This document shows, piece after piece, positions 16,200 through 37,322 of a DNA stretch of 64,000 bases. Source of the stretch: a virus (taxonomy: Duplodnaviria; Heunggongvirae; Uroviricota; Caudoviricetes); the IMG/VR virus record IMGVR_UViG_3300021387_000463, positions 348,754-412,753 of that record. One strand, written 5' to 3'. The translations under genes were made by a program, and so were the position numbers. Under the pieces are notes generated by a model, which saw only the letters and a list, made by a program, of their open reading frames with translations, did not search any database and had not been told where the DNA came from. Numbering within the stretch: the stretch's first letter is position 1; the number at the start of each line of letters is the position of its first letter.

Positions 16200-16238
16200 A
16201 AAAAAGTGAATAAGAGTTTGTTTCTTATTCACTTTTTT
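16200..16238 (+). terminator. Terminator hairpin, possibly overlapping a weak promoter
   Basis: 16-bp inverted repeat AAAAAAGTGAATAAGA/TCTTATTCACTTTTTT. Confidence 0.7.
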
Positions 16239-16257
16239 GTATTTTTTAAATAAAACT

Positions 16258-16947
16258 ATGGACAAAAATATAGCAGTTGTTGTTTGTTCTAGGAAAACAA
16301 CGGAAGAAAACAAGGATTTCATCGAGCACATTAAGAATACTTGCGGTTGTGATACACATGTTTATTTGATACATAATCCAGACGGAGTATCGTTATCAAA
16401 GATATATGCTGACATGATTGTTAATAGCGAGATTGATAGTGATGTAATAGTTTTTATACATGATGATATTGAGTTCTTGAGAGAAGGATGGGGTAAAGAA
16501 GTGTTAAGACTATTCAATGAGCATACTGATTATGGAATTATCGGAGTAGCTGGTTCTGCTCAGTTTGATGAGAAGGGAGCTTGGTGGAATTATGATAAGA
16601 AGTTTGGACAAGTTCTTCATAGGTCAAACGGAAAGTCTTGGTTAACTGCATTCTCACCGTTACTTGATAAAGACTTACAAGAAGTTGTGGTTATTGATGG
16701 TTTGTTCATGGCGGTACACAGAAGAAGATTAGCAGAGAATTTCAGTAGGGAATTGGAAGGTTTTGATTTCTACGATATACATTTTTGTCTAGCTAATTTC
16801 TTTGAAAAGAAAAGTAAGATTGGCGTTACAACCAACATTAGATTAGCCCACAATTCAATCGGACAGCTTAAGGATAGTTGGTACAAGAATAGGGAGATAA
16901 TCAATAAGAAATTTGGTAATAAGTTCCCAATCGATATTTTAAAATAA
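16258..16947 (+). CDS. Glycosyltransferase (GT-A / GT2-like)
   Basis: 'VIVFIHDDIEF', 'GIIGVAG', 'VVVIDGLFMA', 'FDFYDIHFCL'; start moved to the ATG at 16258. Confidence 0.85.
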   Translation: MDKNIAVVVCSRKTTEENKDFIEHIKNTCGCDTHVYLIHNPDGVSLSKIYADMIVNSEIDSDVIVFIHDDIEFLREGWGKEVLRLFNEHTDYGIIGVAGSAQFDEKGAWWNYDKKFGQVLHRSNGKSWLTAFSPLLDKDLQEVVVIDGLFMAVHRRRLAENFSRELEGFDFYDIHFCLANFFEKKSKIGVTTNIRLAHNSIGQLKDSWYKNREIINKKFGNKFPIDILK

Positions 16948-16971
16948 TTTGGCATGATTTTTGCAATTAAT

Positions 16972-17199
16972 ATGGAACTAGATAAACTACTTACACTATA
17001 TAGCGCAGTAAGTAATATTTGTCAAGATTATTCTAGGATGACAGACGGATATTCGCTCGCAACTGGAGATAAGAGATTTGAACATATTCCAGAAGATATA
17101 AGATTAATGATTAAAGAAAGACAAGAGTTTTTCTCATATAAAGATAAGGTTAGAAACCTTTTGAAAAGTAAAATAAGGGAGGAAATGACTAAACTATGA
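16972..17199 (+). CDS. Small helical hypothetical protein
   Basis: ORF track 16954..17199; ATGA overlap with the next gene; start uncertain. Confidence 0.6.
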   Translation: MELDKLLTLYSAVSNICQDYSRMTDGYSLATGDKRFEHIPEDIRLMIKERQEFFSYKDKVRNLLKSKIREEMTKL

Positions 17200-18194
17200 A
17201 TGCAATAAAGAGATTACAGAAAGCATTGTTGAATTTATACTACGGTTTACCATTTGGCCTTAAGGCTGCTGGAGACGAAATCATGGGTGGTGGTGAAGCA
17301 GACCAAGCAGGAACCGAGATAAACCAACAAGTAACCGATAAGAGAGTGGCAAAGCACTTGTTGAAAGGTGAGGTTACTCAAGAAGTTGAGGAACTTAGAT
17401 ATAGGACATATCTAGTTGCCAATGAATCTGAGAAGTACAAGTACCTAGGCAATGGTGTTGCCGTGAAGGAGGAAAAAGAAAAACCAAAGGATAAGACAAG
17501 ATTTAAGTTCTCACAAGACAATGAGAATATCTGTGAGTCTGTGTTAAGTACAATGAATCAAGTCGGAAACTATGGTGCTGAGAAATATCGTTTTGAGATT
17601 GACTATAATTCATTTGTAAGATTTAAGGTTGAGAAGTTCGCAAAGAAGGTTGATGTCGATATTGATGAGAAAATTGGTAAGATTGAAACAACATTGCACT
17701 TTAATACAGAACCAGACCCATATGATGCAGCCTCAATGCCATTTATCAATGAGCTTAAGAAGTTACTTGGTAACAAAAGCGAGTATTTCATTTCAAAGCA
17801 TGAAATCGCATCATCAATCTATAATCTTTCATTCACAACATACAAGGCATATAATGAAGATGACTTAGTAAGTTATTCATTCATTAAGGGTGGTAAGTTT
17901 AAGGACTTTAGACAAGAAGGATATGAATATCTTTTAACACTTACTTGGGATGAGTATATGAGATTACCACTTGACCTTGAATCAAAGTACTACTCTAAGT
18001 CTATGGCTGAGAAGTATGCTAAGAAGGAGAGAAAGGATGTAGCACCAGAAATGGTCAATACAGAGAGAAAGAGATACTGTTCAGTATGTGGTAGAGAAAT
18101 GTCAGTTTATGACGCAGATATACAAGAGGCAGACGGACATAAGCCAATTTGTAAAGATTGTCTTAATAAAGCCTTGAAAAATGAAGAAAAATGA
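17196..18194 (+). CDS. Hypothetical protein with a C-terminal C4 zinc finger
   Basis: CSVC...CKDC near the C-terminus. Confidence 0.75.
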   Translation: MNAIKRLQKALLNLYYGLPFGLKAAGDEIMGGGEADQAGTEINQQVTDKRVAKHLLKGEVTQEVEELRYRTYLVANESEKYKYLGNGVAVKEEKEKPKDKTRFKFSQDNENICESVLSTMNQVGNYGAEKYRFEIDYNSFVRFKVEKFAKKVDVDIDEKIGKIETTLHFNTEPDPYDAASMPFINELKKLLGNKSEYFISKHEIASSIYNLSFTTYKAYNEDDLVSYSFIKGGKFKDFRQEGYEYLLTLTWDEYMRLPLDLESKYYSKSMAEKYAKKERKDVAPEMVNTERKRYCSVCGREMSVYDADIQEADGHKPICKDCLNKALKNEEK

Positions 18195-18218
18195 TTATTC
18201 TTTATATAAAGAAAAATT

Positions 18219-18818
18219 ATGTTGACAATTGGAATTGAATTAAATCATGTTGTAAGAAATATCAACAGACAGATTCTTAAGAACTATTCAAAGGAATTTG
18301 ACCCATCAATGGAATGGGAAGACCTAGACGATAAGGTGGACATCTTCAAGAAGTACCTTAAGTTCGAGAGCAAGTATGAGAAGAATAATTTCTTGTATAT
18401 CGATTATCCTTTTGAAATATTCGGTGCTTGTCCAGCAATGGAGAAGAATCTTCCAAGGGACATCAATAACTGGCTTGCAGATATTGAGAATATGGAAGAC
18501 GAGGACATTAGAATCATTTTCTACAGTTTGGATGAGGTTGCATTGACAATTCAATCTAGTTATTTCTTCTTAAGTAAAATTGGTTCTAGAGTTAGGAAGG
18601 TTATTTTCCCAACAAAGCTTGAAGAGGTTTGGGACGAATGCGATGCAGTGATTACAGCAAGGAATGAGTTCTTTGAGAAGAAGAAACCAGAAGGAAAGAA
18701 GATTGTTCTCATTAATCGTGAGTTTAACGAGGAACATAAGGATGAGGCAGACTTGAACTATAATAGTTTGAGCGAAATCATCACAGATAATAATTTTTTC
18801 AAAAAGGTTAAGGAATGA
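18219..18818 (+). CDS. HAD-fold 5'(3')-deoxyribonucleotidase-like protein with a degenerate motif I
   Basis: 'IGIELNHVVRN' in place of IGIDxDGV; C-terminal 'KIVLINREFN'. Confidence 0.6.
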   Translation: MLTIGIELNHVVRNINRQILKNYSKEFDPSMEWEDLDDKVDIFKKYLKFESKYEKNNFLYIDYPFEIFGACPAMEKNLPRDINNWLADIENMEDEDIRIIFYSLDEVALTIQSSYFFLSKIGSRVRKVIFPTKLEEVWDECDAVITARNEFFEKKKPEGKKIVLINREFNEEHKDEADLNYNSLSEIITDNNFFKKVKE

Positions 18819-19150
18819 CAAATTCACCATACATTTTTGACTTAAACAACATTACAAGCTTCATCTTTGGTAATCCGAATGAGAAGACCAATGAAGTAGA
18901 AATCACGGACAATTTCGTCTATGACAAAGATACAAAGTCAATGATTCCTAATACTAGGGAAGTTAAGGAGGTTAAGGTTAACGATTACACTGGTCAGAAT
19001 ACCATTCGTTACGACATGATTAGAATGTTTATTGACATCCTTGATTCAATCGAAGACCCAAAGGTGTTGACAATGGGACAGAATATTACACTTAATACAC
19101 TAAAGGCGTATGAGCTAATAAAAGATATAAACGAGGAAAGCAATGAGTGA
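18815..19150 (+). CDS. Hypothetical protein
   Basis: 111 aa, translationally coupled to its neighbours. Confidence 0.7.
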   Translation: MTNSPYIFDLNNITSFIFGNPNEKTNEVEITDNFVYDKDTKSMIPNTREVKEVKVNDYTGQNTIRYDMIRMFIDILDSIEDPKVLTMGQNITLNTLKAYELIKDINEESNE

Positions 19151-20228
19151 GAAAGATTTAAAGGTTATCGAGAATATCGAAAAAGAGATTTCAAAGATAG
19201 ACAAGAAGGAAAATAGAATTTATTTCTTTGTGATTGATACAAAGGGAGTTCCTAGCGGTAGCTTGGAATACATCTATAATTTGGCTCTTATCCTTAAGAA
19301 CGAAGGATATAACGTTAATATGCTTCACACTGAGGAAGAGTTTGTAGGTGTTGGTGCATGGCTAGGAGAGGAATACACAAGCCTCCCACATTTCAATGTT
19401 AACAAGGGTGAAGTTGGTACATCACCAAGTGATGTGTTGTTCATTCCTGAGATTTTCTCACAAGTTATGAACCAGACAAGAAATCTTCCTTGTAAGAGAG
19501 TGGTAATCTTGCAGAACTATGACTACGTTGTGGAGCAGATGCCATATGCAGCACAGTGGGGTGATTTTGGAATCATGGAAGGTATCACCAACTCTGATTA
19601 CCAAGCAGCAGAACTTAATGAGGCATTCCCTTATGTGAAACTTAAGAAGGTTAGACCGTTTATCTCAAAGATATTCGGTACAACAATCGCACCAAAGAAG
19701 ATGGTCATCAATGTTATCTCAAAAGACCAGAGTGACATCAAGAGAATCGTTAAGCCATTCTATTGGAAGTATCCATTCTTCAAGTGGGTGTCATTCAAGG
19801 AACTTAGAAACTTGTCAAAGGAAGAGTTCGCAAAGGAACTTAGAGAGGGCGCAATGACAATCGTTGTAGATGAGACTGCAAGCTTCATGTATTCTGCACT
19901 TGAAGCTATGAAGAGTGGTAGTATTACAATGGTTAAAGTTCCTACAACAACCGTAGATTGGGCTAATGGTGAAGAGCTTCCAAACTGTTGCGTATGGTTC
20001 AATGACTACGATACCCTTCACAAGCAGATTGCAAGTGTTGTACGCTCTTGGATTACAGACAAGATACCAACTGTACTCGCTGAAGAAGCAAAGAAGGTTA
20101 CTGAGGAATACACAGAGGAAAACACTAAGGCTGACATCTTGGCTTACATTACAGACGTTCTCGATAGGAGAAAGAAGGAAATGCAAGACTTAGTAGTCCA
20201 GATTAAAGCTAAGAAGGAGGAAGAGTAA
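19143..20228 (+). CDS. Glycosyltransferase-like protein (GT-B fold)
   Basis: 'PSGSLEYIYNLALILKNEGY', 'DVLFIPE', 'SALEAMKSG'. Confidence 0.7.
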   Translation: MSEKDLKVIENIEKEISKIDKKENRIYFFVIDTKGVPSGSLEYIYNLALILKNEGYNVNMLHTEEEFVGVGAWLGEEYTSLPHFNVNKGEVGTSPSDVLFIPEIFSQVMNQTRNLPCKRVVILQNYDYVVEQMPYAAQWGDFGIMEGITNSDYQAAELNEAFPYVKLKKVRPFISKIFGTTIAPKKMVINVISKDQSDIKRIVKPFYWKYPFFKWVSFKELRNLSKEEFAKELREGAMTIVVDETASFMYSALEAMKSGSITMVKVPTTTVDWANGEELPNCCVWFNDYDTLHKQIASVVRSWITDKIPTVLAEEAKKVTEEYTEENTKADILAYITDVLDRRKKEMQDLVVQIKAKKEEE

Positions 20229-20229
20229 A

Positions 20230-20874
20230 ATGAAAGAATTTCTAACAAGTGGCATTGTCGGAAACATTGAACTTGATAAGTCAATATGTGTGCATACATA
20301 TGAACAAGCAAAGAAGAGTCCTAAAATGAAGGAAAAACTAGAGAAATATGTTGAAAGATGGAAGCAGCTAGGATTCACTGAGGGATTCCCAGAGGAACGT
20401 AAGGAAGAGTTATCATATGCTTATGAGCAACTTGCAGTTTTTTTAATTGCTTGTGCAACAGAACAAACGCATGCATTGTTCACTGACCAAGAGAGATATT
20501 TCGACACAGTTGGTTTTCCAATGACTAGAAGAGTTCTTGGTAATCTTGAACCAAATGAGTTTGATTTCCAAATGTACATAAAGTATTGTAAGGAGTTTAA
20601 CGTCAATGACGTGATTAATTATGTCGAAGAGTTGAATCCAATAATAGAACCTTGGGGACCAGGAAGAGAGGTTGTAAGAAAGTATTTCAGCATGGATAGT
20701 GAAGCTGAAGCAGTCGCTATATGCTGCGATATGATAGAAGAAAAATTCAAAAATCCAGATAAAGATAGTAATACTATTAGAAAGGAACATTTTGATAAAG
20801 TTAAGAAACTAATTGAAACTAAGAAAGAAGAGTTAAAGAATGAAGGAACTAGTAGTGATAATACCAATGCATGA
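20230..20874 (+). CDS. Protein whose N-terminal half resembles the N-terminus of T4 gp23-type major capsid proteins
   Basis: 'RWKQLGFTEGFPE...YEQ...FPMTRRVLGNL' versus T4 gp23 'KWKPLLEGEGLPE...FENQ...GMVRRAIPNL' (recalled, not searched); far too short for an HK97 fold. Confidence 0.6.
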   Translation: MKEFLTSGIVGNIELDKSICVHTYEQAKKSPKMKEKLEKYVERWKQLGFTEGFPEERKEELSYAYEQLAVFLIACATEQTHALFTDQERYFDTVGFPMTRRVLGNLEPNEFDFQMYIKYCKEFNVNDVINYVEELNPIIEPWGPGREVVRKYFSMDSEAEAVAICCDMIEEKFKNPDKDSNTIRKEHFDKVKKLIETKKEELKNEGTSSDNTNA

Positions 20875-21649
20875 ATTTGGTAAGGAAAATATAGAACTTT
20901 TGAACAAGGCTGTTGACAGCGTACCAGAGGAAATTAAGGTAGTATTGTCACACAGCAAGAATCTTGACAAGAGAAAGCTCAAGGGTATTAATGAGCGTGT
21001 CAGCTTCATTGCTGAGTCTGAGGGTGATTCATTCGCAGAACTTGTAAATGCTGCTGTGGATGCAGTTGCAAATGATTTCAAGTGGTTCTCAATCCTTGAA
21101 TTCGATGATACATACACTGCAACATGGCTTACAAATGCAAAGAAGTATATTGACTTTATGCCAGACATGAGTGTGTTTATGACTCTTGAGGACATTACAG
21201 ATTTTAATAATGGAAAGTATATCGGTTTCGGTAATGAGGCTGCTTGGGCATCTTCATTCTCAAATGAGATTGGATATATCGACCATGACTGTTTACAGAA
21301 TTATTTTGATTTCTATCTCACAGGTTCAATCTTCAACATCGCAGATTGGCAAGAGGTGGGTGGACTTAAACCTTCAATCAAGATTACATTCTGGTATGAG
21401 TGGCTTCTTCGTGCAACCAATAAGGGCAAGAAGGTTTTTGTAATACCAAAGGTATGTTATAATCATACTCTCGATAGAAAGGGTTCTCTTGTAAACATCT
21501 ACAAGGAATCTATTGACCAAGAGGAATCACAGTGGTGGTTCGACCTTGCAAAACGTGAGTACTTCTATAAGGAAGATAGAAAGAAAGAATACAAGAAAGA
21601 ATTGCCAGATGCTGAAATACCAAATGAAGCATCAGCTAAAGAAGATTAA
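20840..21649 (+). CDS. Glycosyltransferase-like protein (GT-A / GT2)
   Basis: 'LVVIIPMH', 'WFSILEFDD', 'VGGLKP', 'FVIPKVCYNH'. Confidence 0.75.
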   Translation: MKELVVIIPMHEFGKENIELLNKAVDSVPEEIKVVLSHSKNLDKRKLKGINERVSFIAESEGDSFAELVNAAVDAVANDFKWFSILEFDDTYTATWLTNAKKYIDFMPDMSVFMTLEDITDFNNGKYIGFGNEAAWASSFSNEIGYIDHDCLQNYFDFYLTGSIFNIADWQEVGGLKPSIKITFWYEWLLRATNKGKKVFVIPKVCYNHTLDRKGSLVNIYKESIDQEESQWWFDLAKREYFYKEDRKKEYKKELPDAEIPNEASAKED

Positions 21650-21662
21650 AAATTACCTATAT

Positions 21663-21699
21663 AATGGTGCTAATTTTGGTGGTTAGCACCATTTTTTTT
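21663..21699 (+). terminator. Rho-independent terminator
   Basis: AATGGTGCTAA/TTAGCACCATT followed by a T run. Confidence 0.8.
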
Positions 21700-36572: not shown

Positions 36573-37322
36573 ATGAAATTAATTAAAATAAACGAATCTC
36601 AGCAAAAAAGACTGTTCGAAGCGTATCAAGAGGGATTTTCGTTTGACCATTTATCCATATTAGGTAACGATGCTTTTTCTGATGAGGAATCTAGCAGCAA
36701 ACTACAGTTCGAATATTGTAGGAAGTGGCTAGGAGAACCAGTTGCGCAAGGTTCTTCTAGATGTATCTTTATGTTGAGTGACAATCTTGTTTTGAAGATT
36801 GCAAATGGCAAGTATGAAGCTGGCAAGGCTCAGAATCGTCTTGAGTGTCAACTATATGAGGAAACAAAATCACCATTGTTGGTTAGAATATTCGGAAACG
36901 ATGATAATTATACGTATATAATCTGTGAAAATGTAATTCCAGCACAGCCAATAGACTTTGAAAAGATTATCGACATACCATTCTATAATAGGTACTATAA
37001 CCAGAGGAATTCTGAATACAGTCAATATTTCGAGAATCCAAGGGCTAATTATGAGAAAGTACCATATGATGTGTATGACATAGTATGCTATCTTGAGGCC
37101 AACTATTCCGTTGGAGAAGGATATTACAGCAAGGATATAGAAATGTATCTTAGAAAGAATCCTTGGTTGAAGAAGCTTGAGGAATTTATAATGAACACAC
37201 AGATTGGCGATTTAACTAAACCTGAGAATTACGGAGTTGTAAATAGAGACGGAAATCCAATGATTGTGGTTCTTGACGCAGGAATGAATTTAGAAAATTG
37301 GGAGGGATATTATCGTGGCTAA
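36573..37322 (+). CDS. Protein-kinase-like enzyme with the shared N-terminal leader
   Basis: Gly loop AQGSSR, VLKIA lysine, QNRLE alphaC glutamate, catalytic loop DLTKPEN, DAG at the DFG position. Confidence 0.8.
   Translation: MKLIKINESQQKRLFEAYQEGFSFDHLSILGNDAFSDEESSSKLQFEYCRKWLGEPVAQGSSRCIFMLSDNLVLKIANGKYEAGKAQNRLECQLYEETKSPLLVRIFGNDDNYTYIICENVIPAQPIDFEKIIDIPFYNRYYNQRNSEYSQYFENPRANYEKVPYDVYDIVCYLEANYSVGEGYYSKDIEMYLRKNPWLKKLEEFIMNTQIGDLTKPENYGVVNRDGNPMIVVLDAGMNLENWEGYYRG

Follow-up and report, generated by a model that had tools for sequence, protein, structure and literature searches.

Gene X of this phage is a domesticated fragment of the phage's own capsid gene. The protein that it encodes represents a new protein family, within the known theme of capsid-gene paralogy, and it is unable to form a shell, as all of the shell-forming parts of the major capsid protein (MCP) are missing from it. 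X is accessory, fast-evolving and dispensable, being present, absent, duplicated or swapped between near-identical phages. A possible role for X, proposed tentatively and by analogy with capsid recognition in other phages, could be that of a decoy, itself unable to assemble, for a host factor by which nascent MCP is recognised.

Relationship of X to the major capsid protein

The window, which is the whole 64,000-nucleotide stretch that was analysed, is the final 64 kb of a virus record that measures 412,753 bp and is rated complete. Its features are listed in Table 1, and positions are those of the window unless a genome or locus is named. An earlier sequence-only reading had reported an open reading frame with two capsid-like motif strings at the position of X, and the frame, its length and both strings are indeed present. 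Upstream, the GT-B gene has its stop codon at 20226–20228, 1 nt 5' of the X start codon. Searches of Pfam, PHROGs and NCBIfam with X gave no family match and no second domain, and the X-family profile had no match among PDB sequences. No X homologues were found among 50,697 deposited phage records, nor was there a match to X in 185,579 prokaryote genomes; X is confined to phages. A literature search found no described family or paper for X.

Table 1. Features of gene X and its surroundings (positions in the window).
Feature	Position	Strand	Remarks
17-pair hairpin with A- and T-run flanks	16200–16238	both strands score as terminator	between IMPDH-like and GT2_5 genes
GT-B-type glycosyltransferase, 361 aa	19143–20228	+	profile match to PDB 8XSG, E 1.6e-8; context of X
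Ribosome-binding site AAGGAGG	20214–20220	+	read from sequence; ATG of X 9 nt downstream; strong
Gene X (P0001)	20230–20874	+	ORF of 214 codons and a stop; small free-standing MCP paralogue
X residues 1–111	20230–20562	+	homologue of MCP residues 1–90 (BLASTP, hhalign)
X-specific insertion, residues 15–30	20272–20319	+	gap in MCP row of alignments
Spine-helix remnant, X residues 149–174	20674–20751	+	invariant E-A-E motif; remnant of MCP 464–484
Overlap of X and GT-A gene	20840–20874	+	35 nt; read from sequence
GT-A-like protein, 269 aa	20840–21649	+	weak match to rhamnosyltransferase TIGR01556, E 0.019; context of X
Terminator-like hairpin with T-run	21663–21693	+	closes the transcription unit holding X

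The genome encodes one Gp23-family MCP (P0002, 679 aa, genome positions 300892–302931), which matches PF07068 with an E value of 3e-64. In a BLASTP comparison, MCP residues 1–90 and X residues 1–111 share 40% identity (E 1e-17), and the profiles of the X and MCP families match each other with an hhalign probability of 99.1% (E 1.4e-18). When the phage's own genome was searched with X or with the X-family profile, only X and the MCP N-terminus were matched. These results bear out the capsid likeness that had been seen in approximately the first 106 residues, and identify the protein resembled as the phage's own MCP. By analogy with T4, X residues 1–111 would correspond to the propeptide region together with the N-arm helix that ends in the RRV motif.

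The likeness is closest at the very start of the two proteins, where 12 of the first 14 residues are identical while the codons differ at five synonymous sites. This number of synonymous differences in 14 codons indicates that the peptide has been kept by selection in both X and MCP, and it rules out recent gene conversion as the source of the identical peptide. Relative to MCP, X then carries a 16-residue insertion after residue 14, which is among the best-conserved parts of the X family; D16 and I19 are invariant, and H22, Y24 and K28 nearly so. A catalytic or metal site made up of the Cys, His and Asp residues of the insertion was considered and ruled out, since the Cys is replaced by Leu in several members. 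The residues that X and MCP have in common are mostly hydrophobic, and their role may be to hold the fold together.

The same chain of conserved elements is found in the MCP N-termini of T4-like, Flavobacterium and Microcystis phages. The MCP of the T4-like Yersinia phage MHG19 contains the W..L...G.P, ENQ, LTE|A and RR elements in the order in which they occur in X and MCP, and the comparison with T4 gp23 made in the sequence-only reading was thus right in kind. X resembles the N-terminal region of T4 gp23 in having W..LGF/LEG, an ENQ/EQL helix and a helix of the form hydrophobic-P-x-x-RR-V/A in the same order. It differs from gp23 in being a separate gene, in its 16-residue insertion and in its divergence past RRV, and also at the cleavage site, the position of which in MCP is presumed by analogy with T4: at its equivalent in P0001 and the subfamily of P0001 the Glu is replaced by Cys, and [LIVM]-x-E is present there in 51 of 156 X domains.

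X can be aligned with MCP as far as the end of the F-P-x-x-R-R-V helix; over the following 10 or so residues the likeness is lost, and the next strand is absent from X. By this alignment, the whole 29-residue MCP stretch equivalent to Gol is not contained in X. Of the link to the Gol peptide and the Lit protease that the sequence-only reading had drawn, what stands is that the Gol-equivalent stretch is retained in X for its first half, as far as the RRV helix, while the part that follows has diverged. The Gol position in the MCP is one that we take from PMC3014915 together with T4 numbering. A kinase-like protein encoded at 36573–37322 starts with a leader of K-I-x-I-N-E-S followed by an amphipathic helix, and this leader is unrelated to the N-terminus common to X and MCP.

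The remainder of X had been described as an unrelated helical tail. This is partly wrong, as a remnant of the MCP spine helix is present at residues ~149–169 and only part of the C-terminal half is unrelated. BLASTP gives a second, weak segment in which MCP 438–484 is paired with X 123–169, and the profile match of the C-terminal half to MCP was weak with only 23 X sequences. When the C-terminal half alone of 156 diverse X domains was compared to a diverse MCP alignment, the sole match joined X residues ~149–169 to MCP 464–484 (hhalign probability 83%, P 8.9e-6), where the long spine helix begins with the conserved acidic motif D-x-E-A-E. Because the match is short, we regard the support for the spine helix as moderate. 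A related 389-aa protein, P0267, contains two N-terminus-like repeats, the second of which runs from the spine helix into a region matching MCP 471–587 (E 2e-8), and a direct join of the N-arm to the spine helix therefore exists in another protein. The P0267 gene (L028:3995–5164) is a chimera located 3' of a PhoH-like gene and reaches the contig end; its segment like MCP 471–587 comprises the spine helix and part of the A domain.

No counterpart of MCP residues ~90–463 and 485–679 is found in X. The E-loop, the large insertion and the P and A domains have been lost, and X has no match to PF07068. On these alignments, X is made of two non-adjacent helical pieces of the MCP, the N-terminal quarter and the spine-helix remnant.

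X is predicted to fold as a soluble, compact helical bundle. The AlphaFold2 model built with the family alignment is a single bundle (pLDDT 84.7, pTM 0.82) that is all-helical except for one tiny hairpin, with dips in confidence at residues 71–90 and in the tail. A Foldseek search of the PDB with this model gave no match at E ≤ 0.001. The best hits of a VIA wide fold search were generic helical bundles (best Z 6.2, below the noise level for helical proteins), a BFVD search returned only one uncharacterised metagenomic Myoviridae protein, and a search of the ESM Atlas returned nothing usable. The AlphaFold2 model of the MCP is poor (pLDDT 46 with 17 close homologues); little weight is given to it or to its three N-terminal helices and long helix at 472–499, which parallel the helices of X.

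The last 11 residues of X are strikingly conserved. They are encoded in the 35-nt overlap, where one frame specifies a disordered X tail and another the first beta-strand, a highly constrained one, of the GT-A-like protein; P0023 in L009, where the two genes are separate, lacks the conserved tail. The conservation of the tail is thus explained by its overprinting on the start of the GT-A gene. A likeness of the tail (E-x-T-x-S-D-N-S/T) to the presumed mature N-terminus of MCP was considered as mimicry (hhalign P 0.08) and, given the overprinting, is taken as chance.

Distribution, selection and turnover of the X family

There are 58 homologues of 183–216 aa that span X from end to end, with 37–84% identity. 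Full-length homologues occur in many phages of 300–420 kb, and several are located on contigs of 375–423 kb from ruminant gut metagenomes. When 1.84 billion representatives were searched with the X profile, 379 matched at E ≤ 1e-3; the best 150 of these 379 are mostly stand-alone proteins of 110–210 aa that contain both MCP-derived parts, with a few true MCPs that are matched at the N-terminus only. Conservation over the full length of X extends down to ~25% identity across hundreds of clusters.

X is under purifying selection, more relaxed than that of its neighbours. Its dN/dS values are 0.1–0.35 overall, with dS saturated in most X pairs and values of 0.33, 0.22 and 0.22 in the three least saturated ones, as compared to 0.02–0.17 for the flanking genes. 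The suspicion that X might be a decaying fragment is contradicted by the full-length homologues and by dN/dS values well below 1. The alternative offered by the sequence-only reading, a truncated capsid paralogue with a new role, gains support from the homology to the phage's own MCP, the stand-alone state of the gene, its full-length occurrence in dozens of relatives and the purifying selection. On a tree of 76 N-terminal columns, which lacks the resolution to tell a single origin of X from several, one clade is not rejected (p-AU 0.46).

Besides X, the clade holds another partial copy of the capsid gene 5' end, which is independent of it. In a 295-kb relative with terminal repeats (genome G001), a 49-aa ORF on the minus strand (L031:1471–1620) encodes five extra residues followed by a copy of MCP residues 1–35 (94% identical) and a stop, far away from that phage's MCP gene.

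The gene downstream of X was used as the anchor to compare 38 further IMG/VR loci, of which 37 were informative and one was uninformative. X precedes the GT-A gene in 17 loci. In 18 of the 37, including all of the most distant and several close ones, the two glycosyltransferase (GT) genes abut and leave no room for X. One locus (L054) has X after the second GT gene, where it still adjoins GT-A. In another (L038:3398–3535), only the final ~49 residues of X lie between the GT genes, ending in the tail that overlaps GT-A; this deletion remnant indicates that X can be lost. Searches of the X-less records, which are partial, with the X profile matched only the phage's own MCP.

Copy number and sequence vary as well. 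Three X domains lie between the GT genes at L027:4443–6107, where a 180-aa gene is followed by a 368-aa tandem double X; the 180-aa gene matches the X family with an hhalign probability of 99.7%, and tandem forms are also found elsewhere (P0185, P0194 and P0293). Two deeply different classes of X allele occur on near-identical backbones. Between L014 and L017, X is 43% identical while GT-B is 97% identical (dS 0.20), and between L020 and the window X is ~40% identical while four neighbouring genes are 92–96% identical. The MCP is 82–97% identical across the clade, and its N-terminus is 93–96% identical in phages with either X class.

Transcription unit and expression of X

The window contains 11 copies of the motif ATATTTATA, spread over 7432–57841, where 2.8 would be expected, and the genome contains 58. 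An ATG-initiated ORF begins within 60 nt downstream of 36 of these copies, and the motif heads the structural genes at genome positions 285–335 kb, including the scaffold–MCP unit, making it a good candidate for a late promoter. Neither ATATTTATA nor its 7-mer core TATTTAT is found on the + strand between 11722 and 22639, in agreement with the earlier remark that no such motif lies in front of X; ATATTTATA matches the motif of that reading. The missing motif suggests that X is probably not expressed with the head genes.

The unit that contains X is bracketed by the two terminator-like hairpins of Table 1 and opens with the GT2_5 glycosyltransferase gene. The stretch at 16237–21649 forms one unit with three GT-like genes, namely GT2_5 (Pfam E 2.6e-28), GT-B and GT-A-like. 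The glycosyltransferase labels that had been given to the two genes flanking X are supported for the 361-aa protein and weakly so for the 269-aa protein, which has no Pfam or PDB match and belongs to a strongly conserved family. The structure matched by the 361-aa protein, PDB 8XSG, is a putative glycosyltransferase cited in a paper on the glucosyltransferase AmGGT (PMC12159676). The label "HAD", given to the 199-aa gene at 18219–18818, gains no support from the Pfam, NCBIfam and PDB-profile searches, none of which gave a match. This protein has E-L-N at the position of the HAD DxD motif, and the E and N are invariant in ten relatives. The GT-B/GT-A pair, with stop and start abutting, is kept to ~35% identity in phages that have no X.

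Possible roles of X and their meaning

T4 gp23 binds EF-Tu through its first quarter, which also contains the Gol stretch, the activator of the Lit protease (PMC3014915), and it loses its first 65 residues within the prohead (PMC9958956). The defence protein Avs7 detects MCP monomers that have just been synthesised, EF-Tu being its structural partner (PMC13581612). As X has no domain beyond the MCP-derived helices, it most likely acts by its resemblance to unassembled MCP. If X is a decoy, it would stand in for new, unassembled MCP and occupy a factor that normally recognises the N-terminal quarter of MCP. The candidate partner would be a host factor, either a capsid-sensing defence protein or EF-Tu, and X, made before or independently of the late genes, would blunt the recognition of MCP.

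The accessory, hypervariable and duplicating nature of X, together with the missing late motif, points to a host-facing role, and for this reason the decoy reading is ranked first; rapid diversification and exchange of X between related phages are in keeping with it. The reading sits uneasily with alleles of X that are only ~40% identical beside a nearly invariant MCP N-terminus, since a decoy should track the epitope that it imitates. X is also just 40% identical to MCP, the hydrophobic residues common to both may only maintain the fold, and the retained part of the Gol-equivalent stretch is its first half only. Furthermore, the case for early expression comes from the absence of one motif, and a decoy gives no reason for the lasting position of X beside the GT-A gene. 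We know of no described phage decoy that is derived from a capsid protein or is a truncated form of the phage's own MCP. A more specific form of the proposal, which is speculative and doubtful, would make X the first phage counter-defence built from a cut-down copy of the phage's own MCP: a soluble protein resembling nascent MCP, produced in advance of the late genes, that would occupy without activating a sensing system of the Lit or Avs7 type, either alone or with EF-Tu. The hypervariable alleles and changes in copy number would then be the record of an arms race.

Ranked below the decoy, and its main rival, is an association of X with the prohead, which we consider rather unlikely. The MCP-like N-terminus would in that case bind the scaffolding core, the protease or the portal, and X would be taken up by the head and processed in the manner of a T4 internal protein, or else modulate head size or assembly. 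X keeps exactly that part of MCP which T4 cuts from gp23 (65 residues; PMC9958956), along with the inner-face spine helix, and its 14 N-terminal residues are held by selection as they are in MCP. One X subfamily has I/L-x-E at the presumed cleavage-site equivalent, in the least confident, loop-like region of the model. Accessory status and variability are also seen in the T4 internal proteins, one of which, IPI, protects glucosylated DNA (PMC9958956), which would fit the neighbourhood of GT genes. However, neither X nor its operon is preceded by the late motif that the structural genes have, the presumed cleavage Glu is Cys in the P0001 subfamily with [LIVM]-x-E in only about a third of the X domains, and many relatives with the same MCP do without X. 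X is strongly variable while MCP is nearly invariant, and it contains no cargo domain beyond the MCP-derived helices.

It is improbable that X is a partner of the flanking GTs, whether as an adaptor to MCP or the prohead, as a regulator or as an acceptor. GT-B, X and GT-A follow one another, with genes that abut or overlap, in relatives that include distant ones with ~25% identity in X, and the relocated X of L054 remains adjacent to GT-A. Yet the GT pair is found without X in half of the loci, among them all of the most distant, so that co-occurrence is not obligate and the pair is older than X and works without it; it is for this reason that we rate a GT role low. The adaptor idea of the sequence-only reading is further weakened by the relocation in L054, by the reduction of X to a remnant in L038 and by the divergence of X, which is uncorrelated with that of either GT (r 0.03 and 0.17). 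The Ser/Thr-rich, acceptor-like tail of X is explained by its overprinting on the GT-A start. A co-fold of X with GT-A scored 0.00, below the mark, which counts neither for nor against binding. Less probable still is that X is a functionless by-product of partial capsid-gene duplication, carried at a permissive junction. The clade does produce partial copies of the MCP 5' end, as in the 49-aa ORF with MCP 1–35 of the 295-kb relative, and loss of X is frequent, but the low dN/dS, the full-length conservation across hundreds of clusters, the X-specific invariant residues, the confidently predicted compact fold and the strong ribosome-binding site all speak against it. Some probability is reserved for roles other than these four.

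Several known systems resemble X in part. T4 gp24 is the vertex paralogue of gp23, a full-length shell protein of HK97 fold and an essential part of the virion. Like gp24, X is a second gene that one phage has gained by duplicating its major capsid gene; unlike gp24, it has no shell-forming domains (214 versus 679 aa for the MCP, and no PF07068 match) and is dispensable. Delta, or scaffolding, domains are helical N-terminal extensions of HK97-type capsid proteins that face the prohead interior and are removed on maturation, and the N-terminal part of X similarly derives from a helical capsid-protein N-terminus. To our knowledge, delta domains act in cis and none is known as a separate accessory gene, whereas X is a stand-alone gene that contains a spine-helix remnant as well. 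DSAD1 is a phage anti-defence protein against DSR2 that competes with the structural-protein trigger and is not a homologue of it, while Fv1 is a host-encoded, capsid-derived restriction factor. If X is a decoy, it would share with both the logic of a stand-in for a capsid or structural protein that disturbs recognition or assembly, and would differ from DSAD1, which has no homology to the trigger, and from Fv1, which is a host gene, in being a phage gene derived from the phage's own MCP. The T4 internal proteins reach the head by means of an N-terminal address that is then cut off (PMC9958956). X is small, accessory and fast-evolving like IPI–III, and some of its alleles have I/L-x-E. Its N-terminus, however, is a 100-residue homologue of MCP in place of their 10-residue capsid-targeting tag, and the conserved cleavage site and late expression of the internal proteins contrast with the unconserved cleavage motif and missing late motif of X.

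X shows the birth of a gene from two non-adjacent helices of an HK97-fold protein. Capsid proteins are major triggers of bacterial immunity, and the answers of phages to capsid sensing, other than point mutations, are a largely open field. Here, a large and abundant clade of huge phages from the gut and rumen keeps an optional, rapidly changing mini-copy of the very part of the capsid protein that T4 uses for EF-Tu binding and removes in the prohead. If X is a component of the prohead, it would represent a new way of directing proteins to the head or of adjusting how very large capsids assemble. If X is a true decoy, it would represent a new class of counter-defence and would provide a handle on capsid sensors in uncultured hosts.
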